Shown here: positions 44,423 through 55,739 of the stretch, piece after piece
Numbering within the stretch: the stretch's first letter is position 1
Layout of the letters: each line of letters starts with the position of its first letter
Assembly (NCBI RefSeq): GCF_054482525.1
Contig: NZ_CM137006.1
Direction: 5' to 3' (one strand)
DNA length: 64,000 nucleotides
Notes under the pieces: generated by a model
What the model saw: only the letters and a program-made list of their open reading frames with translations
The model's database searches: none
Told to the model about the DNA's origin: nothing
Program-made: the position numbers and the translations under genes

Positions 44423-45409
44423 ATGAACGCAATAATATCGCCCGATTATTACTATGTTCTTACCGTTGCTGGTCAGTCTAATGCCATGGCGTATGGCGAA
44501 GGACTGCCATTACCGGACAGGGAAGATGCGCCTCATCCCAGAATTAAACAATTAGCGAGATTTGCGCATACGCATCCCGGAGGCCCGTCATGTCACTTTA
44601 ACGACATTATTCCACTGACTCACTGCCCACACGATGTTCAGGATATGCAGGGTTATCACCATCCTCTGGCAACGAATCATCAAACACAGTACGGCACCGT
44701 TGGCCAGGCACTGCATATTGCACGGAAATTACTGCCCTTCATTCCTGATAATGCAGGGATTCTCATCGTTCCGTGTTGCCGTGGCGGATCGGCTTTTACC
44801 GCAGGCAGCGAAGGGACATATTCAGAACGGCACGGAGCCAGCCATGATGCTTGTCGTTGGGGAACGGATACTCCGCTATACCAGGATTTAGTCAGCAGAA
44901 CGCGAGCCGCACTGGCAAAAAATCCGCAGAACAAATTCCTCGGCGTATGCTGGATGCAAGGCGAATTTGACTTAATGACCAGTGACTACGCGTCACACCC
45001 TCAACACTTTAATCATATGGTTGAAGCCTTTCGTAGGGATCTAAAACAATACCATTCTCAGCTTAATAAAATTACTGACGCACCGTGGTTTTGCGGCGAT
45101 ACCACCTGGTACTGGAAAGAAAATTTCCCTCATGCGTATGAAGCTATTTATGGCAATTATCAAAATAATGTTTTAGCCAATATTATTTTCGTCGACTTCC
45201 AGCAACAAGGTGCAAGAGGACTGACGAACGCGCCTGATGAAGATCCGGACGATTTAAGCACGGGATATTACGGTTCAGTGTACCGGTCACCGGAGAACTG
45301 GACGACGGCACTGCGAAGCAGTCATTTCAGCGCGGCAGCCCGTCGGGGGATTATTTCTGACAGGTTTGTAGAAGCAATTTTGCGTTTGTCACATTTTCAC
45401 AAAGAATAG
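44423..45409 (+). CDS. nanS: 9-O-acetyl-N-acetylneuraminate esterase (SGNH hydrolase)
   Basis: Track ORF from TTG 44396; ATG at 44423 gives MNAIISPDYYYVLTVAGQSNAMAYGEGLPLP... (SGNH GQSN motif), ~328 aa. Confidence 0.88.
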   Translation: MNAIISPDYYYVLTVAGQSNAMAYGEGLPLPDREDAPHPRIKQLARFAHTHPGGPSCHFNDIIPLTHCPHDVQDMQGYHHPLATNHQTQYGTVGQALHIARKLLPFIPDNAGILIVPCCRGGSAFTAGSEGTYSERHGASHDACRWGTDTPLYQDLVSRTRAALAKNPQNKFLGVCWMQGEFDLMTSDYASHPQHFNHMVEAFRRDLKQYHSQLNKITDAPWFCGDTTWYWKENFPHAYEAIYGNYQNNVLANIIFVDFQQQGARGLTNAPDEDPDDLSTGYYGSVYRSPENWTTALRSSHFSAAARRGIISDRFVEAILRLSHFHKE

Positions 45410-46154
45410 TACACGCTATTCCTTGTGCAATCAGGCCAGCTCGCAATAAAGGCAGCAACTATGCTTGAAGCCCCTTTCACCGCCGGATAAATAATATCCT
45501 TACGGCAATTGGTAACCGTATAAAATGCTTGATGTTTTGAACTGCCGTTGACGAAGATGAAGTAATCTGCTTTTTTGGCAGCATCCAATAACGCATCAAT
45601 GGCAACGCGATCATTGTTGAGCTCAATTCATAGCGCCGGATACAATTTCAATAAGGCGTCTTTACCACGTTGCGTGGCATTTTTGTAATACTGTAAAACA
45701 CCCGCTTTTTCCCGCGGAGATTCCGATACAACGGAGACGTTACGCTTGCTGGTATGGTTTCTGTCGGGAGGGTACTACCGATATCCTTACAAACGTAGAG
45801 CTGTTCCATCATGCGTGCCAACAACAGCATACGGATATCCAACCGTTCCCAGCGACGTAGGAACATCTCGCGAATGTTAATCCAGTACTGTAGTCGGCGA
45901 TCGCTATCACCAGATTCACAATCATAAAGAACCTCTGCAATATCAAGAGTATACTTGAGAATTTATGTCGATTCATTTTTCGTGCACAACATTTCGATAG
46001 CTTCGAGGGCATCATGGTATTCTTTGTGACTGAAGGTCCATGAAAGTAACGTATCCAGAATAATCCCTGTAGTTGCCAAAATGAGTTGATCACTACACAA
46101 TGATTTGTTTGTACAGAAGGAACGATTATTATATGTTCTTGTAGGGCAGAGCAC
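45397..46154 (-). pseudogene. frame-disrupted remnants of a larger gene (possibly the yjhR-like gene that neighbours nanS in K-12)
   Basis: Four short minus-strand ORFs in three frames (45397-45588, 45648-45866, 45809-46093, 45963-46154); my translation across 45720-45400 reads ...SPREKAGVLQYYKNATQRGKDALLKLYPAL*IELNNDRVAIDALLDAAKKADYFIFVNGSSKHQ... with an in-frame TGA, i.e. a decayed C-terminal coding region. Confidence 0.4.
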
Positions 46155-46271
46155 GTTGCTACGGTAACAGCGTTGAAGATAATTTGGTCGAGACTGTAGT
46201 GGCCCAGTTTAAAAGGTAGCAGAATTTTAAAAGTGTCAGGTGCATAGAATTAAAAAAATGGAACTATAAAA

Positions 46272-48005
46272 ATGGAAATCATGTTACCAAAAAACACCTT
46301 ATATGACAGAGAGCAAAATGTCTTTTTTGAAAAGGTTACGGCCTTAATTGGCGAAAATGGTGCTGGTAAGTCCTCGATTTTACAATCCGTATTTATTAAC
46401 TGTTTAACAAAAAAATATCTACCAGAAACAAAGGTTGTTTGTTTTTCTTCTGGACAAAATGAGAAATACTCAACGTACTTCTCTGATTATCTTTCTCATG
46501 AAAGGCAAGCAAATAGAGGTCTTAACTTAGATTGTTGTTATTACGATAAATCATGGTCAAAGTTACTAATATTCATATCCACAATTTGTAAATCAAATGG
46601 TCTTGTTAGAAATTTTTTATGTGAGAAAGGCTATATTGATGTATCAGATGATAAAAATGATGATATATCAAGCAAGCTTACATTGACGGTCCGAGTAAAT
46701 TCGGCTTACGTTAATCGAGTAAAAATGGCATTAGCACAAGAAGAACAAGGTATTGAAAATACTTTAAGGTATTCAGCTTATCATAGGACTTTAGAAAGTT
46801 TCATTAATAATATTGTTAATGCTGATTATGATTTCGAGTCTCCACTTGAAGCTCAAGAGATCTTGCTAACTCATTCAAATTTTTTCAATCCATCATTTGA
46901 GGAAGCAGAAGATTCCTTTTTTGATCCTATCATAACATTTTTCACTCAAGCAGCAGATAATGATTACTTTATAATAAAACCATCATTACAGCTAGAGTTT
47001 AAAAATAATATCGAACTGAATGATATTAGTGATGGGGAATATCAAGTACTCTTTTTATACTCTCTGCTTGATATTTTTGATAGTCCTAATACTTTATTCT
47101 TATTAGATGAGATAGATTCCCATTTACATTACAAGAATATTGAGCTCTTATGGCATCGACTACATAGTATTAATGGTTATGCGATAACAACCACCCATCT
47201 ATTAGACTCAATTACAGCTACTGATAATGATTTTAAAAACTTAAAGATTGTTGATAAAGGAAAAATAAAAGAAGATGATAAAATAAAAACTATAATAGAA
47301 CGTTTATCTGTCTTGACAAGAATATCAGACGTACAGTTCGAAGTGTGTCGTAAACTAGAAAACATAGTATTGATGGATGATTATAATGATTGGACTATTT
47401 TTTATGCCTTAGCAAAGAAAAAAGGACTTGATGTATCAAAGTTAGATGGCCTCCATGCAATAAAACAGTCCTCTGGTTACGATAATTTAAATCAAGAGTT
47501 CGCAAAACCAAAAATAGAGTGGATTAATTCGCTTTCAAATGTAAATACTGATAAGAAAGTCAAAAAAATATTCATGATCTGCGACAAAGATGAGGCTCCA
47601 ATTACCTATCAGAAAGATGGAGTTCAAGTCAATGGAAGTGAATATTCAAAACATATAGCGAAGTTAGAAAATAAAAACAAAAATAAAATATATCTCCTTG
47701 CTTGGAAAAGAAGAGAAATAAAAAACTACTTATTATCTTATACGGCATTGTCTCATCATGGATTTATCGGGCAAATAAACAATGGTGATCTGCCGGCTAA
47801 CAGTTATTTAAAAGAAAACAATCCTGGAGATAATTCAGCAATTAGCCGGCTTAATGTAAAACATTGCATCACAAAAATAATTGATTCTGATGGTATAGGA
47901 TTAGATATCTCAAAACTTTACTCATATATAGAACTTATACCACCTGCTGAGATCAGTGAAGATATAGTGAACATGTACAATTTTTTGGTGGAGAAATTAA
48001 AATGA
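46272..48005 (+). CDS. ABC/SMC-type ATPase (AAA_21/OLD-like) with a C-terminal ~240-aa putative nuclease-like (TOPRIM/DUF4435/RloB-like) domain
   Basis: 577-aa ORF in very AT-rich DNA; Walker A GENGAGKSS (aa 27-35), Q-loop FSSGQ, signature-like DISDGEYQVL, Walker B/H-loop LFLLDEIDSHLH; C-terminal region with acidic clusters (VLMDDYND, FMICDKDE) and LAWKRREIKNYLL motif; start M1 vs M4 uncertain. Confidence 0.8.
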   Translation: MEIMLPKNTLYDREQNVFFEKVTALIGENGAGKSSILQSVFINCLTKKYLPETKVVCFSSGQNEKYSTYFSDYLSHERQANRGLNLDCCYYDKSWSKLLIFISTICKSNGLVRNFLCEKGYIDVSDDKNDDISSKLTLTVRVNSAYVNRVKMALAQEEQGIENTLRYSAYHRTLESFINNIVNADYDFESPLEAQEILLTHSNFFNPSFEEAEDSFFDPIITFFTQAADNDYFIIKPSLQLEFKNNIELNDISDGEYQVLFLYSLLDIFDSPNTLFLLDEIDSHLHYKNIELLWHRLHSINGYAITTTHLLDSITATDNDFKNLKIVDKGKIKEDDKIKTIIERLSVLTRISDVQFEVCRKLENIVLMDDYNDWTIFYALAKKKGLDVSKLDGLHAIKQSSGYDNLNQEFAKPKIEWINSLSNVNTDKKVKKIFMICDKDEAPITYQKDGVQVNGSEYSKHIAKLENKNKNKIYLLAWKRREIKNYLLSYTALSHHGFIGQINNGDLPANSYLKENNPGDNSAISRLNVKHCITKIIDSDGIGLDISKLYSYIELIPPAEISEDIVNMYNFLVEKLK

Positions 48006-49909
48006 ACACCTCTTTATTTGAAGATCTACTTACACTAATCAAGAAAAAGAGTTCGATAAGAAATACAGAGCAAGCAGTAGAGTTAATTTCATTATTTATT
48101 TTTTTACATTATATAAAATTATATCTTTATGAAAATGATAAAAGATTTTCAGATATAAAAAACATATCAAGCAACAACATTAATGAAATTAAATATTATT
48201 ACCAGCAACTATATGAAAGTTTTATTTTCTCGATAGATATAAAAAATATAAACCACGACATGCTTGAAAACCTCAGGAGTAAGATAGGTTTTTTAATTAA
48301 TAACATCAATGACCATGAAATAATTAAATATATAGATTATTCTATTTCGCAGATACATTCACTTACAGAATTCCATCAATATGCAAATTCTTATCAATCT
48401 TTAATTCTTAGGATGGTTAATGAATCGGGTCGTTCAGGTGAATATGTTACTCCATCTGCTTTAGTTCAGCTCATGGTTGAAATGTTATCACCTACAGATG
48501 GCACATCAATCTACGACCCAGCATGTGGAACTGGGGGTTTATTAATAGAGTCAGCACGATATATTAAAGGCAACAGTTTAAACAAAAACTTAAATTTAAA
48601 TTATTCCCTTATTGGTAATGACACATCATCATTTGCCTGTCTAATCTCAATTGTTAACCTTTTAATCAATAAAGAATTTAATTTTGAAATAATACTAAAA
48701 GATAGCTTAGATATAAATTATAAGAATAAAAAATATGACTTTGTTTTAACTAACCCACCATTTGGGAAAAAGAGCTGTTGGGATAATATTCATATTGACA
48801 CACATTATAAAGGACCTAATCTAGACTATTACTTCCTGGAGCATGTTATTGACTCTCTCGCTGTTAATGGCAAAGCAGCCATGATATTACCAGAGCGTTT
48901 TTTATATGATGTGAGTGAAGAGTGCATCACTCTTAAAGATAAGATCTTCCAAAATTATAATTTAGATTGTATTTTATCTATACCGTCAGGTGCATTGCTT
49001 CCTTACACTGCAGTAAAATTATGTATTCTTTTTATAAGTAATTCTGGCCCAACAGATAGAATATTTTTCTACAATTTAAATAATGGTGAAAAATACTCAC
49101 GTACAAATATTATAAAATTCGATGATTTTATAGATTTTTTAGAGTCAGCAAAAAATAGAACAATAACTGAACACTCCTGGATTATCAATATTAGTGATAC
49201 ACCTTCATCTTATAACTTACTCTTAAAAGATAAAGAGCGAAACTCATATGAGTTTCTTAGTGATTCTATAGTTAACATTGAACAGACAATACGTAATAAT
49301 GAATTATTACTAACAGAGTTGTCTTTATTAAGAGAAAAAATAGCAATCTTAGAGTCAACAATAAAAAATCATTCGCATGAATATGAATTTGAGAGACTTA
49401 AAGTTGGAAATATTGCAATAGTAAAATCCGGAAATTTATTACAAAAAAACAGGCTGTTACCCACTGGACCAATTCCTGTATACGGTGGAAATGGAGTTAT
49501 TGGATATAATAATGAAGCAATGGAAAATGGTGAAAATATTATTATTGGTAAGGTCGGAGCTCTTTGCGGAAACGTTCGGTATGTTCAAGGTGATATTTGG
49601 GTGACAAATAACTCATTAATTATTAAGAATTATTCACCAAATAAAGTTTTAACACCCTACCTTGCAAAATTATTATCTACTTTAAACTTAAGAAGGCTCG
49701 CCGTTGGTACCGCTCAGCAATATTTAACCACGACACAAATAAAAAATGTAGAAGTTAGTATTCCACCTTTAACGACCCAGTATAAATTAAATATTTGGCT
49801 TGATGAGTTAGATAATACGCTTGAACAATATAATAATCTCATTGAAAAAATAATGAATGATAAGCGAGAACTTAAAGAGAATTTGTATAAAGGTCTTTTA
49901 ATAGAATAG
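48002..49909 (+). CDS. N6-adenine DNA methyltransferase (HsdM-like, gamma class) fused to a single HsdS-type target-recognition domain (M-S fusion)
   Basis: 635-aa ORF overlapping the upstream ATPase gene by 4 nt (ATGA); motif X/I GEYVTPSALVQLMVEMLSPTDGTSIYDPACGTGGLL, motif IV FVLTNPPFGKK, then a TRD with HsdS hallmarks (GNIAIVKSGN...IPVYGGNGVIGY...IPPLTTQYKLNIWLDELDNTLEQ). Confidence 0.85.
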   Translation: MNTSLFEDLLTLIKKKSSIRNTEQAVELISLFIFLHYIKLYLYENDKRFSDIKNISSNNINEIKYYYQQLYESFIFSIDIKNINHDMLENLRSKIGFLINNINDHEIIKYIDYSISQIHSLTEFHQYANSYQSLILRMVNESGRSGEYVTPSALVQLMVEMLSPTDGTSIYDPACGTGGLLIESARYIKGNSLNKNLNLNYSLIGNDTSSFACLISIVNLLINKEFNFEIILKDSLDINYKNKKYDFVLTNPPFGKKSCWDNIHIDTHYKGPNLDYYFLEHVIDSLAVNGKAAMILPERFLYDVSEECITLKDKIFQNYNLDCILSIPSGALLPYTAVKLCILFISNSGPTDRIFFYNLNNGEKYSRTNIIKFDDFIDFLESAKNRTITEHSWIINISDTPSSYNLLLKDKERNSYEFLSDSIVNIEQTIRNNELLLTELSLLREKIAILESTIKNHSHEYEFERLKVGNIAIVKSGNLLQKNRLLPTGPIPVYGGNGVIGYNNEAMENGENIIIGKVGALCGNVRYVQGDIWVTNNSLIIKNYSPNKVLTPYLAKLLSTLNLRRLAVGTAQQYLTTTQIKNVEVSIPPLTTQYKLNIWLDELDNTLEQYNNLIEKIMNDKRELKENLYKGLLIE

Positions 49910-49989: not shown

Positions 49990-52900
49990 TTAATAATGCT
50001 CCTCAATATACCCATACGCCTTCTGGAACAACTCTTTATCTTTCCCTAGTCCAAACTGGGCCAAGGTCAGCAAAAGCGCCTTTTGGATTTCGCGCGGGCC
50101 ACTGTTAGAATTTTGCCAGCCATCAAAGCGGGTAGCTTTCACAATTTTATCAATTTGCTCTACAACATCACCGATTAACTTAGGGGTAGTTTCCGGACGT
50201 GTTTCGAGGAAAAGCTTAGTCAACGCCTGTTTATTATCAGCTTCAGTTACTGGACGCTCGCCCGTTTCGCGCTCGGCTTGAACGGTATCTTTCGCTGCAT
50301 CCAACAGGCCTTTCAACCAGTCAATGGCCTTGATAACACCAGCTTCATAGTCCTGACGCAGTTTTTCAAGGCGCTCGCCCAATGCCACAAATTTAGGATC
50401 ATGACTGCCGCGCAAACGTCCCATAAGATCAATCTCCAGGCGTTTAGCACGTTGTTCCTGCTCTTTAGCGGTCAGGGTAAAAATAGCGTGCTCGTCCATG
50501 ACCAACTCGTCAATATCATCGCGAATACGATTGATATCAGTATGCTCATGGATCATCTTGATTGTTTCGGGGCCAAGGGCAGCCCAAACAAGCGCACCTG
50601 TCTGCCCTACCGGACGCACCGATTCATAAATTTGCGCCAGCCATTTATAGTCCTGACGATAAGGGGTCAAAAAAGGGTCTGGGTTGATAGCTGACCATAA
50701 CTTGGATAACACACCAAAGCTGGCAGCGAATTCATCGCGCTTCTCGTTGGTCGGCAGGCATTCCTGCGCGGCCATAATACCTTCAAAACCAGCTATGGAC
50801 CGATCCACACCAGGGAAGAAGGACAAACATTTATTCAGTTGTAACGGCAATAGCTCTTTAAATGCCTCAATTCCCTCTACAACTCCTTCAATTTCTTCAG
50901 GGTTATAGGCCAGAGCGGTACGCAGATTTTCGAAAACGCCGAGGTAGTCGATAATTAATCCCATGTCCTTGCGTACAGTATCGGTTTCGTACAGCCGGTT
51001 AGTTCGGCACATGGCCTGCAGAAGGGTATGATCGCGTAGAGGCTTATCGAGGTACATGCAGTAGCAAATCGGGGCATCAAAGCCCGTAAGCAGCTTGGCG
51101 GTTACGATAATAAGCTGTAATGGATATTCAGGATCTTTAAAGCACTCAATTAGATCCTTTTGCACCTGCTCTTCGGCATCGATGTGCTGCCAGCGTTCAA
51201 AATCGACTTGTTTGACAGGCAGCTCCAACTCATCATGCCATTTAAGCCAATCCTTGTTGAGCTTGTCTTTTTTGCCACCCTCTTCAACTTTAATCGGAGC
51301 CTGGTCAACGTTCATAACCACTTCAACTGCATCAAAACCAAGCTTTTCACCGAGCAAATAATACATCTGCACACAGGCTTCGCGATCGTATACCACAACC
51401 ATGCCTTTCATCTTTTTCGGCATAACATGGTTGGTAAAATGCTCAGCAATATCATTACTCACCGCAGCCATACGTCTGGGAGATTTCAGCATAATAGCCA
51501 GCTTGCCGGCACGTCTGGACAATGCTGCTTTTTCTTCTTCATCCAGGTTGTTTTCGGTAGCCAGTTGCTCGAACTCTTCATTGATGGCATCACGATCCAC
51601 TCGGAGTTCAGCCAGCCGAGGTTCGAACTTCACCGGGTTAGTTGCGCCATCCCGGATCGACTGCTTATAGCTATAGCGGCTCATATAGCGACCTGGATCT
51701 TCTTCGGCACCGAACAATTTGAACGTATTACGATCAATGCCAGAAATCGGAGTACCAGTCAGGCCATAGAAGTGGGCATTGGGCAACGCCCAGCGCATTT
51801 TCTCGCCTAATCCCCCTTCCTGTGTACGGTGAGCTTCGTCAACCAACACAATGATATTGTCCCGGTTGTTCAGGCCATTAGGGTTGCTATCGTCAATTTC
51901 GATATCTTTAAATTTAAAGATGGTGGTGATTAAAATGCCACGGCTGTCTTGTTCAATGTATTCACCCAACTTTTTGCAGCTTTGCACTTTAATCAGATTC
52001 TTAACGTCGGCTCCACCAAAGGTCTCGTTAATTTGGCTGTCCAGATCTCGCCGGTCCACAACGATAAGTACCGTCGGGTTTTTTAACGCATTATCGGCAC
52101 GTAGCATTTTGGCGGCGTAAAGCATCAACAAGGATTTACCCGATCCCTGGAAATGCCAAATAAGACCTTTTTTTGGATAGCCTCTGCGAACACGCTCAAC
52201 AATTTGTTTTGCAGCTTCAAATTGCGGATAACGCGGCAAGATTTTAACGCGTTTAGGTGGAGTATTTTTGCCCGTTTTGACGGTTGAAAATAATGCAAAA
52301 GATTCCAGTAACTGCAATAAGGTTTGCGGATTTAACAAACTCTCACAGCTATTGAGTACCGATGCCAGACCCGGCAAAATTTCATCACGAAGCTCAGTAT
52401 TATGCCAGGGTCCCCAGTCTTTAACTCGGGCATTAATGGCTCCATAGGCAAAGGTTTTACCTTCGCTGGCAAAGCACAGCAAGTTAGGTACAAAGAAAGA
52501 TTCAACATTTTTCCAGTAGTACTTTTTGCCACCCATGAAATCGGCAGCACCGTCTTGCCAGGTCACGCTGGGGCGTGTTGCGGTTTTAACTTCGCCTACT
52601 ACCAGTGGCATGCCGTTCACATAAAGAACAATATCAAAATAGACTTCAGTGGCCGCGATATAGTGAACCTGCTGCGCCACTACAAAGTGGTTGTTCTCTA
52701 TATTGTCAAAATCAATCAGATTGATGGTGATATGGTCGCCATTCTTACCAAAAGGCAAGGTTTTGTCGGCCATCAACCATTCCTGGAAGTTTTCATTGGC
52801 CTTTACCAAGCCGGTATGGCGGGCTTCTAAAACCACTCCTCGCAGTTTGTAAATGACCTCATCGGCATAGTCAGGCTGTCTGCCGATATCAGGGTTTAAC

Positions 52901-53052
52901 GAACAAAGCGCGTCTTTTAGCCACTCATCAACGAATATATCCTGCGCTTGTTTAGGCAGGTTTTCACCGTGGCAGTAAGTCCACTTGACTCCGCTTAAAC
53001 CTTTTAAACGGTCGATAATTCCATTTTCTGTGACGGTTTGTTCGTTAAACAT
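49990..53052 (-). CDS. hsdR: Type I restriction enzyme R subunit (DEAD/DEAH helicase-nuclease)
   Basis: Track ORF 49990..53070 begins at TTG; ATG six codons in (MFNEQTVTENGIIDRL...) has AAGGAAAT RBS; Walker A HFQGSGKSLLM, DEAH box VLVDEAHRTQ; ~1020 aa. Confidence 0.9.
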   Translation of the reverse strand: MFNEQTVTENGIIDRLKGLSGVKWTYCHGENLPKQAQDIFVDEWLKDALCSLNPDIGRQPDYADEVIYKLRGVVLEARHTGLVKANENFQEWLMADKTLPFGKNGDHITINLIDFDNIENNHFVVAQQVHYIAATEVYFDIVLYVNGMPLVVGEVKTATRPSVTWQDGAADFMGGKKYYWKNVESFFVPNLLCFASEGKTFAYGAINARVKDWGPWHNTELRDEILPGLASVLNSCESLLNPQTLLQLLESFALFSTVKTGKNTPPKRVKILPRYPQFEAAKQIVERVRRGYPKKGLIWHFQGSGKSLLMLYAAKMLRADNALKNPTVLIVVDRRDLDSQINETFGGADVKNLIKVQSCKKLGEYIEQDSRGILITTIFKFKDIEIDDSNPNGLNNRDNIIVLVDEAHRTQEGGLGEKMRWALPNAHFYGLTGTPISGIDRNTFKLFGAEEDPGRYMSRYSYKQSIRDGATNPVKFEPRLAELRVDRDAINEEFEQLATENNLDEEEKAALSRRAGKLAIMLKSPRRMAAVSNDIAEHFTNHVMPKKMKGMVVVYDREACVQMYYLLGEKLGFDAVEVVMNVDQAPIKVEEGGKKDKLNKDWLKWHDELELPVKQVDFERWQHIDAEEQVQKDLIECFKDPEYPLQLIIVTAKLLTGFDAPICYCMYLDKPLRDHTLLQAMCRTNRLYETDTVRKDMGLIIDYLGVFENLRTALAYNPEEIEGVVEGIEAFKELLPLQLNKCLSFFPGVDRSIAGFEGIMAAQECLPTNEKRDEFAASFGVLSKLWSAINPDPFLTPYRQDYKWLAQIYESVRPVGQTGALVWAALGPETIKMIHEHTDINRIRDDIDELVMDEHAIFTLTAKEQEQRAKRLEIDLMGRLRGSHDPKFVALGERLEKLRQDYEAGVIKAIDWLKGLLDAAKDTVQAERETGERPVTEADNKQALTKLFLETRPETTPKLIGDVVEQIDKIVKATRFDGWQNSNSGPREIQKALLLTLAQFGLGKDKELFQKAYGYIEEHY

Positions 53053-53053
53053 T

Positions 53054-54241
53054 TTATATTTCCTTATCAATCATAGCTTGGCGCAGTTGAATAATTTTCC
53101 CCAAGGATTCATTGTGCCTATAAATATTCTCATACGAACACTTAAACGTATTAATGATTGATGCTTGAATATCGAAGGGAGGAATAGGAATTTGAATTTT
53201 TAAAAAGTTATCTTTATTTATTTTCTTCATACTTCCGCTAGTTCCAGCAGCAATACCTTGAATAGCTCGACGGCCATATGGAGACATCAGATAGTACATT
53301 AAAAACTCTTTTTTAATAAATTTTTCGTCAACAGCCAATCTCCACATCGTGTCTGGGAAAATCGTATTCCCATTGCCAGTCGATCCTTTATATTTTCCAA
53401 CTAAACCAACCAACTCCGCTGTATTAGAACGAGAGATTAACAAATCACCATCATTGCATGTTTTTCCTTTTAAAAAATGATCTTCTGTAATATTTTTTAA
53501 AGTAGTTTCTCTGAATCCTGATTTCGACAAACTATTTAGGTTCAGGACATAGTACCCAGTCCCGACTGCGGTTTCAACAGGAGAATATCCCCCTTCTGGA
53601 GAATCAATTAAAACATCTTTAATAGAACCAAAAGTCCATCCAACCGGAAGAGGAACACATTTATTCTCCCTCGAATCAAAGTAGTTATCAAAAGTCCGTA
53701 GACCAATAGCATATAATAATCTTTTAGCTGCTTTGAGAGCACTTAAATATAGAAGTTCTTTCTTTGCTAACGAATCAAAGATTATTAATGACGAGTATTG
53801 CTGTTCAATGCTCGGTATATTAACTTCTAGTTTATTTAAATCACTCCATTTTATTCGCGATGATAGCGAGCCGGCGGAATTTGCAATCACCTTTTCCATA
53901 AAAGAGGTTGATTGCATCAAGTGGGGTAAGTACCCATCCAATAAGTAGTTGTTTTTCCTTGGTTTAATTACCATTGCATCAGCAGAGCAAATACCATTAA
54001 TAGGGCTCACCGACACCCTTTTTAAATATGTATTTCGTCTACTAAAAATTATTTCGCCACACTTTACCTTAAAGGCTTGTGTTTTCAATTCAACGTCAGC
54101 CCCCCAATCATGAACATAAAAATAACCAGATTTCAAATGTTCCAACCCAATAAAATGCTTAGCATCGTCGCTTGTTGGGGAGATTCTAACCATAACCTGT
54201 TCAGCAAGATCACCAAATGTAACATTTCTTTTATTATTCAT
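53054..54241 (-). CDS. hsdS: Type I restriction-modification specificity subunit (two target-recognition domains)
   Basis: Track ORF 53054..54292; probable start MNNKRNVTFGDLAEQ at 54241 overlapping the hsdM stop; two TRD halves with a central conserved region; the stop lies within ~15 nt of the hsdR start. Confidence 0.85.
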   Translation of the reverse strand: MNNKRNVTFGDLAEQVMVRISPTSDDAKHFIGLEHLKSGYFYVHDWGADVELKTQAFKVKCGEIIFSRRNTYLKRVSVSPINGICSADAMVIKPRKNNYLLDGYLPHLMQSTSFMEKVIANSAGSLSSRIKWSDLNKLEVNIPSIEQQYSSLIIFDSLAKKELLYLSALKAAKRLLYAIGLRTFDNYFDSRENKCVPLPVGWTFGSIKDVLIDSPEGGYSPVETAVGTGYYVLNLNSLSKSGFRETTLKNITEDHFLKGKTCNDGDLLISRSNTAELVGLVGKYKGSTGNGNTIFPDTMWRLAVDEKFIKKEFLMYYLMSPYGRRAIQGIAAGTSGSMKKINKDNFLKIQIPIPPFDIQASIINTFKCSYENIYRHNESLGKIIQLRQAMIDKEI

Positions 54242-55739
54242 TATTATATTTCTCTCTATCAATTTCATAGCCAATGCTATCCAAGCTATCAAACAATACC
54301 TTGATATTTCTTTTGAGTTTTACGCTACTGACTTTCCATGATTCGATAGCATGCTGAATATCATTCATTTTGACATTGTTTTGAGATTTCACATAAAGTG
54401 AAATCGATAAATTATAGAAATTTTCTTTAATAGCTTCGATATCCACTAAAGCGGTTATGTCGTTTTTTTTCTCCGGATTAAAATAAGCCTCGCATAATAC
54501 TTCCAAATCATCATCAGATAGGCGACTATGGGCACGTTCACGGGTAACATACTCAACCCCGTTGATAAACAAAACCTTATTTTTGCGTTCAGCAGGTTTA
54601 TTGCAATTAAGCACCACCAAGCAAGATTCCATCGGCGAGTTGTAAAACAGATTTGGTCCCAAACCAATCACCGCTTCGATTATGTCGGATTCAATCACCT
54701 GTTTACGAATGGCTTGTTCAGAATCACGGAACAGTACACCATGCGGCCAGAGCATGGCAGCACGACCGGTGTCGGGTTTTAAACTTTTGATTATATGGGT
54801 ATAAAACGCATAATCAGCACAACCTTGTGGAGGCACGCCATAGAGATTACGCCCATAGGGATCGGCTGCAAACTTGTCACGATTCCATTTCTTAATGGAG
54901 TATGGTGGGTTAGCAAAAATCACATCAAACTGCTTGAGCCGATCGTTTTCAATAAACTTTGGCTCAGCCAAAGTATCACCACGCAGCACATCAAACTCTT
55001 CAATATCATGCAGGAACATATTCATACGAGCAATAGCGGAAGTCAGCAGGTTCACTTCCTGACCATAAAGGTGCACAGAGCGCCACTCTTCTCCTCTTGC
55101 ACGAAGATCCATCACTGCATTTAGCAACATCCCTCCAGTGCCACACGTTGGATCATAGGCTGTTTCACCCGGTTTTAAGCCCATAATGCGCGTCATTAAA
55201 TGCACGACTGTTCGGTTGGTGTAGAACTCTGCTGCCGTATGACCGGAATCATCAGCGAACTTTTTAATCAGGTATTCGTAGGCCTCACCAAGATCATCCT
55301 GAGCGACAGATTTAATACCGAGCGGTATTTTACTGAAATGTTCAATCAGATCAGCCAGCAGATGATCGGGCAGGCGCTCTTTATTGGTCCACTGCGCATC
55401 ACCGAAGACGCCATGTAAACGCGGATTATTGGCTTCAATTAGTCGAAGCGCATTCTGGATCGCTTCACCAATGTTTTTACTGGTATTGCGTACCTTTTCC
55501 CAACTGGCTTCAGAGGGAATATTGAAACGGTGAAACATCGGCATGGCGGCATATTCAGCATCACCTTCATGGAGTTCCAGCGCTTCGTTATATTCTTCCA
55601 GATAGACATCTGACAGGCGTTTGTAAAACAGCAACGGGAAGATATACTGCTTGTAGTCTGATGCGTCAATTTGGCCACGAAGAAATTCGGCGGCTCCCCA
55701 GAGCAGCTCTTCCAGCTTTTTATTACTCATAGTACTCAT
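54234..55739 (-). CDS. hsdM: Type I restriction-modification N6-adenine methyltransferase subunit
   Basis: 501-aa ORF; HsdM N-domain (LEELLWGAAEFLRGQIDASDYKQYIFPLLFYKRLSD), motif I DPTCGTGGML, motif IV NPPYS; motif X reads AEFYTNRT rather than the usual GEFYTPR. Confidence 0.9.
   Translation of the reverse strand: MSTMSNKKLEELLWGAAEFLRGQIDASDYKQYIFPLLFYKRLSDVYLEEYNEALELHEGDAEYAAMPMFHRFNIPSEASWEKVRNTSKNIGEAIQNALRLIEANNPRLHGVFGDAQWTNKERLPDHLLADLIEHFSKIPLGIKSVAQDDLGEAYEYLIKKFADDSGHTAAEFYTNRTVVHLMTRIMGLKPGETAYDPTCGTGGMLLNAVMDLRARGEEWRSVHLYGQEVNLLTSAIARMNMFLHDIEEFDVLRGDTLAEPKFIENDRLKQFDVIFANPPYSIKKWNRDKFAADPYGRNLYGVPPQGCADYAFYTHIIKSLKPDTGRAAMLWPHGVLFRDSEQAIRKQVIESDIIEAVIGLGPNLFYNSPMESCLVVLNCNKPAERKNKVLFINGVEYVTRERAHSRLSDDDLEVLCEAYFNPEKKNDITALVDIEAIKENFYNLSISLYVKSQNNVKMNDIQHAIESWKVSSVKLKRNIKVLFDSLDSIGYEIDREKYNNE

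Follow-up and report, generated by a model that had tools for sequence, protein, structure and literature searches.

A putative dpdD pseudogene remnant at the nanS edge of the leuX defence hotspot HS37 in Escherichia coli

Introduction

DpdD is part of the restriction half of the Dpd 7-deazaguanine restriction-modification (R-M) system, which is encoded by dpdA-K and was reportedly described in Salmonella Montevideo by Thiaville and colleagues in 2016. The S. Montevideo dpd cluster sits at leuX, in a hypervariable region (PMC5699537). HS37 is a leuX-anchored defence hotspot between lptG and uxuR with an adjacent integrase, and Dpd is listed in 2% of the HS37 loci in Enterobacteriaceae (PMC12707154).

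Here, we analysed a window of 64,000 nucleotides of E. coli PCN033 (assembly GCF_054482525.1, contig NZ_CM137006.1), in which nanS is followed by short minus-strand open reading frames (ORFs). The RefSeq annotation of PCN033 leaves 45410-46271 blank, and pieces of this interval are called 'hypothetical protein' in other genomes. An earlier note, made from the letters of the window, had taken the ORFs for the tail of a frameshifted yjhR-like gene. Homology indicates that they are instead what is left of a dpdD gene (Table 1).

Table 1. Features at and beyond the nanS edge of the island in PCN033 (window coordinates)
Feature	Coordinates	Strand	Basis
nanS (sialate O-acetylesterase), intact	44423..45409	+	RefSeq annotation of PCN033
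Junction 1, conserved backbone / variable leuX-HS37 island	45387..45388	.	synteny breakpoint with most E. coli
3' flank of former dpdD; remnant ORF stop at 45399-45397; overlaps nanS tail	45388..45444	-	homology to L005; DpdD profile end ~45445
Putative dpdD pseudogene relic	45445..46067	-	residues ~506-714 of 716-718-aa DpdD; tblastn, HMM and Pfam label
In-frame TGA (PAL-stop-IEL)	45628..45630	-	Ser in relatives; P0001 reads PELSIEL
Frameshift, shared	45680..45708	-	tblastn segments overlap at 45681-45708; alignment to P0001
In-frame TAA (NEST-stop-ILKY), lineage-specific	45963..45965	-	PCN033, L006, L007, L008; other genomes NESKQILKY
Junction 2, 5' truncation of dpdD	46067..46068	.	protein and nucleotide homology both end at 46067
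Non-coding spacer, 204 bp, GC 0.363	46068..46271	.	in all 102 carrier genomes
AT-rich two-gene module, GC 0.299	46272..49909	+	Pfam, NCBIfam, PADLOC; colinear with relic in 102 genomes
AAA_21-type ATPase	46272-48005	+	profile matches
N6-adenine methyltransferase fused to single type I specificity domain	48002-49909	+	profile matches
Intact homologue of K-12 yjhR pseudogene, 1171 aa	59598..63113	-	Pfam AAA_11, AAA_12, PLDc_2

Results

The remnant corresponds to the C-terminal third of DpdD

The minus strand from 46067 to 45445, once a frameshift and two in-frame stops were bridged, gave a translation that corresponds to the last ~210 of the ~716 residues of DpdD. In profile searches it matched the PADLOC DpdD model PDLC02826 (E = 9.4e-67, positions 515-726 of 729) and the NCBIfam equivalog NF041061 (E = 3e-46, positions 496-704 of 704), far beyond chance. 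Its NF041061 score of 158.6 bits lies below the curated whole-protein cut-off, and the relic does not encode a full-length DpdD (~700-770 aa and 300 bits for NF041061), since only positions 496-704 of the profile are represented and homology ends at 46067. Nor does an uninterrupted reading frame run through the relic in PCN033.

The closest database protein, P0001 (67% identity, E = 6e-82), is labelled PF28109:DpdD, the precomputed Pfam label found on the relic's database matches. The Pfam-A scan of the joined translation returned 0 families, a false negative, as the copy scanned was without PF28109; the identity was settled by the NCBIfam and PADLOC profiles.

In tblastn, residues 505-714 of full-length DpdD proteins (716-718 aa) aligned to 46067-45445. 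For P0007, aa 507-635 aligned to 46067-45681 and aa 627-714 to 45708-45445, and the same pattern was observed for P0008. Over the matched segments, identity between the relic and its nearest full-length DpdD proteins is only 37-58%, and the closest relative of all, the locus on Logan contig L005 that carries P0001, is itself an independent dpd remnant, with nucleotide homology from 46067 down to 45399 (74.5% over 671 nt).

The four minus-strand ORFs on which the earlier note was built (45397-45588, 45648-45866, 45809-46093, and 45963-46154) are present in three different frames, as is the in-frame TGA, and the idea that they rebuild the tail of a larger, decayed gene holds in outline. However, two frames suffice for the reconstruction, frame 2 from 46067 to about 45685 and frame 1 onward to 45445, and the frame-0 ORF at 45809-46093 is an overlapping chance ORF without a part in it. 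The remnant also does not fill the whole interval to 46271, as had been supposed: DpdD homology covers 45445-46067 only, and 46068-46271 is a spacer without detectable homology. Judged by these matches, 45445-46067 is the tail of a dpdD pseudogene and not a yjhR remnant.

Shared and lineage-specific lesions

The lesions were compared among 14 sequences (8 complete genomes and 6 independent Logan assemblies). The 5' truncation, the frameshift, and the TGA were common to 14 of 14. At the frameshift, frame 2 (...GKKRVFYSITK) passes into frame 1 (NATQRGKDALL...), where P0001 reads ...KKLVIYSLTESAARRGKDALI...; the shift falls within 45681-45708, and the A5 run at 45680-45684 is most simply its site.

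Besides the TGA, which had been the only stop noticed, PCN033 has the TAA at 45965-45963, and variable alignment columns at 45967 and 45965 underlie the difference between genomes with and without it. The other lineage-specific lesions are 1-bp indels at 45479, 45576, and 45932, and one extra stop in L006. Such stops and 1-bp indels, differing between lineages, are as expected of neutral decay. The 884-bp segment (45388-46271) contains 4 indel columns versus 0 in the flanking 400 nt of nanS and 400 nt of the ATPase gene. Substitutions in the relic are distributed 8/4/8 over the codon positions, numbers (n = 20) that are small and weakly informative on constraint. A relic in this state would be non-functional and presumably unable to contribute to restriction.

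Both junctions of the relic

The 45300-46400 region was matched by 5009 genomes, and in all but 102 of them the matches listed stop at query base 88, which is window base 45387 (one stops at query base 76). Synteny is lost at 45387/45388 in ~4,900 E. coli genomes, 7 codons before the nanS stop, and the alignment with K-12 ends at the same base. The last 7 codons and the stop of nanS (45388-45409) thus come from island-side DNA, and the NanS C-terminus reads ...EAILRLSHFHKE in PCN033 and ...EAILQFWRER in K-12. The boundary between backbone and island, which the earlier note had put near 46271, is therefore in the last nanS codons, and the remnant is old island cargo, not backbone.

At the other junction, beyond 46067, dpdD lacks about 505 codons, the remainder of the dpd cluster is absent, and the translation upstream is unrelated to DpdD. 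The spacer that follows matched none of the sequences compared with it: dpd genes, other island DNA, plasmids, and, by tblastx, the DNA ahead of the ATPase gene in five relatives. It has a consensus-only promoter-like site at 46156-46183 and may hold a putative promoter of the ATPase gene. In 45200-46400 as a whole, promoter-like (4 versus 2.7±1.5) and terminator-like sites (2 versus 0.7±0.9) were not above shuffles, and an Rfam search over 45000-46600 at E ≤ 1 gave 0 matches.

No direct repeats, IS ends, or microhomology pointing to a deletion mechanism were found at either junction. The repeat search returned two inverted pairs only, one of 20 nt with 75% complementarity and an exact one of 12 nt. 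An arm ending at 46067 belongs to a weak match that was judged to be due to chance.

The shift to AT-rich sequence that had been described as abrupt is real, but it is stepwise, from 0.484 GC in nanS to 0.437 in the relic, 0.363 in the spacer, and 0.299 in 46272-49909. The AT-rich stretch covers only ~3.8 kb and two genes, and GC is again ~0.44-0.48 from roughly 50000.

Distribution and island context

The 884-bp segment was found in 102 of 5,426 complete genomes, always in the same context; a plasmid search with the relic gave no match. In all 102 carriers the relic is colinear with 4.7 kb or more of the cargo downstream, and 100 of them are colinear over the whole 18.6 kb. Beyond the ATPase and methylase pair, the cargo continues with a type I R-M system. 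Continuation of synteny into the downstream genes, which would have spoken against a boundary here, is accordingly seen among the 102 carriers but not in the ~4,900 other genomes.

In PCN033, a tRNA-Leu (record 4803690-4803774) and a tyrosine integrase (4803961-4805226) lie 68.5 kb from the relic, and uxuR lies on the fim side. The locus thereby agrees with a leuX-anchored hotspot in its tRNA-Leu, integrase, and uxuR, and the suggestion that a differently loaded leuX island has its distal boundary here, to be sought through leuX and an integrase beyond the window, was borne out. The content is variable and rich in defence genes: K-12, CFT073, O157, and strain 35 carry different cargo at the nanS edge, including McrBC, type I R-M systems, helicases, and PT-REase and BrxA fragments, and the PCN033 island contains two type I R-M systems, an Mrr-type endonuclease, a TIR pseudogene, and more. 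These results indicate that the relic marks the far edge of the leuX defence hotspot HS37.

Other parts of a dpd cluster were sought by tblastn (E ≤ 0.01), the queries being DpdG, H, I, J, and K of two relatives with intact clusters. Neither the window nor the other 49 kb of the island gave a match. No dpd gene appears in the RefSeq annotation of the 68-kb island, and the association of dpdD with dpdA, dpdB, dpdC, and other dpd genes that defines a Dpd system was not found around the relic.

Discussion

A proposed history of the locus

The locus is very probably best explained as a dpdD relic left by cargo replacement at the nanS edge of HS37, with later decay. A dpd cluster ending in dpdD would once have occupied the nanS-proximal edge of HS37, its end joined to nanS at 45387/45388. 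A deletion or cargo replacement would then have taken dpdA-K and the first ~505 codons of dpdD, and this event would have put the spacer, the ATPase and methylase pair, and then the type I R-M system against the stump at 46067/46068. The frameshift and the TGA would have arisen in the stump before today's carriers split, and lineage-specific stops and 1-bp indels since. We infer this order of events, and the former presence of a complete cluster at the nanS edge, from the comparisons above.

The closest intact relatives have the genes in the order dpdG-H-I-J-K-D; dpdD stands last there and is followed by unrelated genes, which explains the survival of its tail. An intact dpd cluster of the relic's dpdD lineage was not found beside nanS or elsewhere. 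The ATPase and methylase pair is co-directional after hsdR in Vibrio and Oceanospirillaceae relatives and inverted in PCN033. A simple in-place inversion was rejected as the cause of the truncation, as the 5' part of dpdD would then adjoin hsdR, where only 80 bp without dpd signal are found.

Alternative explanations

A different course of events, possible but rather doubtful, is the import of a dpdD stump that was already truncated. It would have come as one segment with the spacer, the ATPase and methylase pair, and the type I R-M block, brought in by homologous recombination that used nanS at one end, and its source would have been the HS37 island of another Escherichia or enterobacterium; the direct ancestors of the carrier E. 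coli would then never have had a complete Dpd system. The colinearity of relic and downstream cargo in all carriers is consistent with such an import, as the block behaves as a unit, and an intermediate state was not seen in any E. coli genome of the complete-genome collection. In addition, carriers differ by 6.0 substitutions per 100 nt in the last 400 nt of nanS versus 3.8 in the relic, a possible recombination edge, and the HsdR and HsdM of the block are 86% identical (aa) to Vibrio pacinii proteins, indicating that this cargo travels widely. However, the GC contents of the relic and the ATPase and methylase pair differ sharply, which argues against a single shared origin, and the dpd-derived DNA abuts nanS, so that a dpd cluster beside nanS in some enterobacterial genome would be required anyway. 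Import would relocate the decay without changing the identity of the sequence.

It is very unlikely that the stump is still used, whether by expressing a small protein (a 143-168-aa ORF, sometimes called 'hypothetical protein' by PGAP, or the DpdD C-terminal domain), as an antisense element or terminator for nanS, with which it converges and whose last codons it overlaps, or as the promoter region of the ATPase gene. Many carriers have an open ORF of 163-168 aa (P0002, which has 71 member sequences, and P0003), and it is annotated in some genomes, but the TAA interrupts it in PCN033 and in three more of the sampled genomes, as does a 1-bp insertion in L010. Other bacteria repeatedly carry short ORFs for the DpdD C-terminus (P0004-P0006), but in E. 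coli the shared TGA interrupts this domain, which most lineages have also lost 1 bp from, and P0004 sits directly behind an IS transposase elsewhere and is also a remnant. The Rfam result and the shuffled controls likewise give no sign of a regulatory element. The only present-day contributions evident for the relic region are passive: the last 7 codons and stop of nanS and, possibly, a promoter in the spacer.

Independent recurrence of 3'-terminal dpdD stumps (in E. coli, at L005, and at the P0004, P0005, and P0006 loci, to which a 148-aa PADLOC 'DpdD' model can be added) raises the question of whether they are mere leftovers. That the dpdD end has a preferred recombination or cassette-exchange site where dpd islands end, or that its C-terminal domain of ~130 aa has a selectable stand-alone role, for example as a decoy or regulator, seems highly improbable; in either case, some stumps would be kept for a reason. 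The E. coli copy is clearly broken and could at most be a fossil of such a process.

The proposal that a yjhR-like helicase gene, such as stands beside nanS in K-12, left these fragments after frameshifting is almost certainly wrong. It draws on position only, as the K-12 yjhR pseudogene lies ~600 bp past nanS on the opposite strand. Comparison of 45300-46400 with the K-12 nanS-yjhR-topAI region (blastn at word size 7 and six-frame tblastn) gave no match past 45387, K-12 yjhR and its flanks being without nucleotide or translated similarity to 45388-46400, and the fragments match DpdD at E = 9e-67. K-12 yjhR (L002 12688-13907) aligns instead to window 59599-60819 (70.4% over 1229 nt, E = 7e-159). 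It corresponds to the 3' third of the gene there, whose product is an SF1 helicase with a C-terminal PLD nuclease; this gene lies 14 kb further into the island than the dpdD relic and is not part of it.

An intact gene hidden by sequencing or assembly errors in PCN033, a concern already raised in the earlier note, for which the short A run at the frameshift, a typical homopolymer-error site, might speak, can be dismissed with near certainty, because the frameshift and TGA are identical in the 14 independent assemblies, which marks the region as a decayed remnant, and repair of all lesions would still yield only 30% of DpdD.

Implications

The finding is ordinary and of small practical value, and it does not challenge current understanding. 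The interval 45410-46271 could be annotated as a dpdD pseudogene. Expecting yjhR from its position in K-12 gave the wrong answer in a cassette-exchange hotspot, and cargo turnover at the leuX hotspot has left a dated footprint in the relic. It suggests, short of proof, that a Dpd system once stood at the nanS edge in an ancestor or donor of ~2% of sequenced E. coli and was then replaced by methylation-based systems.

Comparison with known systems

Like the Dpd locus of S. Montevideo, the relic lies in the leuX hypervariable region, where Dpd is listed as HS37 cargo, and its ~210 residues can be aligned over their full length to the C-terminal third of the DpdD profiles. Unlike a Dpd system, it comprises 30% of one gene, broken and divergent from the sampled full-length DpdD proteins, with no dpdA/B/C or dpdE-K annotated nearby.

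The L005 and P0004 loci are independent dpd-cluster remnants, each with a 3'-terminal dpdD stump left after loss of the cluster. L005 differs in that it keeps dpdJ'-dpdK'(aa 1-54)-'dpdD(aa 461-717) beside queD, not nanS, and the P0004 loci in that the stump is IS-adjacent in L028, with queD and not nanS beyond. In both, the frames are still open.

In E. coli, the nanS edges of K-12 and CFT073 show comparable scars. Truncated and frameshifted defence-gene remains follow nanS in K-12 (a PT-DNA-binding restriction endonuclease fragment and yjhR), HNH, PT-REase, and BrxA fragments follow it in CFT073, and the backbone breakpoint of both is likewise in the last nanS codons. With the variable region beginning within nanS, the final 6-7 nanS codons differ with the island variant that supplies them. 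The PCN033 relic, in contrast, is unrelated to the K-12 scars in sequence and gene family, the PCN033-type edge occurs in the 102 carriers among the 5,426 genomes, and the yjhR-type gene that is a pseudogene beside nanS in K-12 is intact in PCN033, 14 kb further in.

Identity of the decayed gene beside nanS

The chromosome of E. coli PCN033 (NZ_CP006632.1) matches the window at 100% identity; the strain is a porcine ExPEC belonging to phylogroup D (PMC4578781). RefSeq leaves 862 bp beyond nanS without annotation, and the methylase gene is followed by type I R-M genes, then by a TIR pseudogene and the genes for an Mrr-type endonuclease and a large 'AAA domain' protein (see the table).

The four minus-strand ORFs and the in-frame TGA described in the earlier note were all present, and the three minus frames, read in parallel, gave one coherent protein-like sequence. 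Only two of them are used, however: a frame 2 segment is followed by a frame 1 segment, indicating that the relic spans two frames joined by one frameshift and carries, in PCN033, two in-frame stops, and the frame-0 ORF is an overlapping chance ORF.

A search of 5.8 billion clusters with the joined translation yielded six relatives, and each bears the precomputed Pfam label PF28109, the family named DpdD. The translation also matched the NCBIfam DpdD equivalog (E 3e-46, model positions 496-704 of 704) and the PADLOC DpdD model (E 9.4e-67, positions 515-726 of 729), whereas the local Pfam copy gave no match because it lacks the recent family PF28109. With two full-length DpdD proteins in tblastn, residues 505-635 aligned to 46067-45681 and residues 627-714 to 45708-45445. 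DpdD is usually ~700-770 aa long, and the relic covers its C-terminal third (exhaustive HMMER search with P0001, the DpdD-type protein of the closest relative). DpdA, DpdB and DpdC insert preQ0 and ADG into DNA, and DpdD-K confer the restriction phenotype (PMC10164549; PMC5699537).

The proposed identity as a yjhR-like remnant did not survive comparison with K-12: 45300-46400 matched the nanS-ythB-yjhR-topAI region at the nanS end only, up to 45387 (blastn, word size 7; six-frame tblastn), and the fragments match DpdD. On homology, the decayed gene at 45445-46067 is dpdD, not yjhR.

Features of the nanS-leuX region in PCN033 (window positions unless marked "record")
Feature	Position	Strand	Comment
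fimB, nanC, nanM, then nanS	nanS 44423-45409	nanS +	RefSeq
Junction 1	45387/45388		Within nanS
dpdD relic	45445-46067	-
Frame 2 portion	~46075 to ~45685	-	...GIILDTLLSWTFSHKEYHDALEAIEMLCTKNEST*ILKY...GKKRVFYSITK
Frame 1 portion	on to ~45445	-	NATQRGKDALLKLYPAL*IELNNDRVAID...KGASSIVAAFI
In-frame TAA	45965-45963	-
In-frame TGA	45630-45628	-
Frame-0 ORF	45809-46093	-	Chance overlap
Junction 2	46067/46068		End of DpdD homology
Spacer	46068-46271
AAA-family ATPase	46272-48005	+	RefSeq
N6 methylase	48002-49909	+	RefSeq
Type I R-M (HsdR, HsdM)	49990-57337	-
Tandem hsdM genes	54234-55739; 55736-57337	-	Different lineages
TIR-domain gene	57533-58296	+	Frameshifted, internal stop (RefSeq)
Mrr_cat endonuclease	58481-59470		Just downstream of helicase-PLD gene
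Helicase-PLD gene	59598-63113	-	1171 aa, intact
tRNA-Leu (leuX)	record 4803690-4803774
Tyrosine integrase	record 4803961-4805226
leuX-proximal island end	record 4805550-4817369		L003 (island locus) 551-12370

Boundaries of the relic

A match to the nanS end was present in 5,009 of the 5,426 complete genomes of E. coli; in all but 102 of these, the matches listed end at 45387 or up to a few bases short of it. In addition, NanS terminates in ...EAILRLSHFHKE in PCN033 versus ...EAILQFWRER in K-12. The loss of synteny inside nanS and the divergent NanS ends indicate that the true boundary between backbone and island lies at 45387/45388, not at the composition step where it had been placed, and that the relic is on the island side. 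The last 6-7 nanS codons and the stop (45388-45409) vary by island variant (RLSHFHKE* here, QFWRER* in K-12), and several RefSeq genomes (KLY, CFT073, O157 LSU61, DETEC-P881) list nanS as a pseudogene or a truncated gene. Among carriers of the relic, substitutions per 100 nt were higher in the last 400 nt of nanS (6.0) than in the pseudogene (3.8).

At the other end, DpdD homology stops at junction 2 at the protein and nucleotide levels alike; the Logan contig L005, which bears P0001, matches the relic at 74.5% over 671 nt (46067-45399). The 204-bp spacer matched nothing it was compared with. The reported drop to AT-rich defence genes is real but stepwise, the GC content falling from 0.484 (nanS) to 0.437 (relic), 0.363 (spacer) and 0.299 (ATPase and methylase pair); the AT-rich part spans only ~3.8 kb, and the type I R-M region past it has a GC content of 0.44.

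Distribution and decay

The 884-bp segment 45388-46271 was found in 102 genomes; every copy is complete, shows 97.5-100% identity and lies on the chromosome beside nanS. All 102 are colinear through 50100, and 100 to the window end. Lesions were compared in eight complete genomes across the identity range and six Logan assemblies. All 14 sequences share one truncation point as well as the frameshift and the TGA, whereas the TAA is seen in PCN033 and three sampled copies (L006, L007 and L008), and a 1-bp deletion at 45479 in 6 of the 8 complete genomes. L006 has an additional stop, L010 a 1-bp insertion at 45932 and L012 a 1-bp deletion at 45576. These common and lineage-specific lesions exclude sequencing error.

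As a further sign of neutrality, the relic contains four indel columns, whereas the 400-nt stretches compared from nanS and the ATPase gene contain none. Its 20 substitutions are distributed 8/4/8 over codon positions 1-3, which on its own is weak evidence. The lesion pattern argues against a retained coding function. An Rfam search, promoter and terminator scans and a repeat search around the relic gave nothing to build on.

Origin of the stump

The two intact clusters nearest to the relic (L013 and L016) have the order ...dpdG-H-I-J-K-dpdD, with dpdD last and unrelated genes after it. Internal deletion or cassette replacement would be expected to spare a terminal gene at the edge of the island, suggesting that a dpd cluster ending in dpdD once adjoined nanS, that all sequence before codon ~506 was then lost or exchanged, and that the stump would have been decaying ever since. 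It is also possible, though we consider it less likely, that the decay took place in a donor and the entire block was acquired later. Neither further dpd fragments within the island nor an intact cluster of the relic's dpdD lineage was found.

L005 is itself an independent stump: the last 25 dpdJ codons precede dpdK codons 1-54 fused to dpdD codons 461-717, then queD. Unrelated bacteria repeatedly carry short C-terminal pieces of DpdD, 130-250 aa long (L005, L027-L029; proteins P0004-P0006), typically beside queD (PTPS). P0004, too, is a neighbour of queD, and one of its contigs places it immediately after an IS transposase. PADLOC holds a 148-aa 'DpdD' model. Such fragments may represent a stand-alone domain; they are probably repeated relics of the terminal gene.

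The neighbouring restriction-modification genes

In Vibrio pacinii and an Oceanospirillaceae MAG (L020 and L026), the AAA_21 ATPase and the methylase/specificity fusion (the pair at 46272-49909 in the window) follow hsdM-hsdS-hsdR co-directionally, 25 bp past hsdR. HsdR and HsdM of V. pacinii share 86% amino acid identity with the window proteins. The tandem hsdM arrangement of the window recurs in V. pacinii, where hsdM1 is immediately preceded by the end of an hsdM2-like gene. The hsd genes and the pair look like a conserved six-gene composite. In contrast to these relatives, the pair is inverted in E. coli, and therefore converges on hsdR, and its GC content is far lower (0.30 against 0.44). 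The pair also shows weak PADLOC matches to MADS mad2 and mad3. The TIR-domain gene is a further decayed defence gene in this block.

The leuX island and its known counterparts

The K-12 yjhR pseudogene matches 59599-60819 (70.4% over 1229 nt, E 7e-159), the 3' third of an intact ORF whose product combines an SF1 helicase (AAA_11, AAA_12) with a C-terminal PLD nuclease domain. This gene, present in >800 E. coli genomes (e.g. UTI89, ABU 83972), is the full-length counterpart of the pseudogene.

The earlier placement at the distal edge of a leuX island was borne out by a tRNA-Leu gene and an integrase 68.5 kb from junction 1. The intervening cargo in PCN033 includes a second type I R-M system, TA modules, IS elements and other genes. 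That second system lies at the leuX-proximal end together with the AAA ATPase associated with it; a MazG-like protein, a thymidylate synthase and a dGTPase-family protein are also encoded there. The island thus holds two or more type I systems.

Cargo at the nanS edge differs in other strains, often with its own scars: ythB, a PT-DNA-binding endonuclease fragment and the yjhR pseudogene in K-12; fragments of HNH, PT-endonuclease and BrxA in CFT073; a transposase fragment and helicases in O157:H7; and intact PT-endonuclease, McrBC and type I R-M in strain 35. The PCN033 region is 'hotspot #37', anchored at leuX. Among 41 defence hotspots of E. coli it has the highest occupancy, and Dpd is recorded in 2% of such loci across Enterobacteriaceae (PMC12707154); the dpd cluster of S. 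Montevideo likewise lies at leuX (PMC5699537). The relic lacks annotation but is an object of a familiar kind, and its hotspot is well described.
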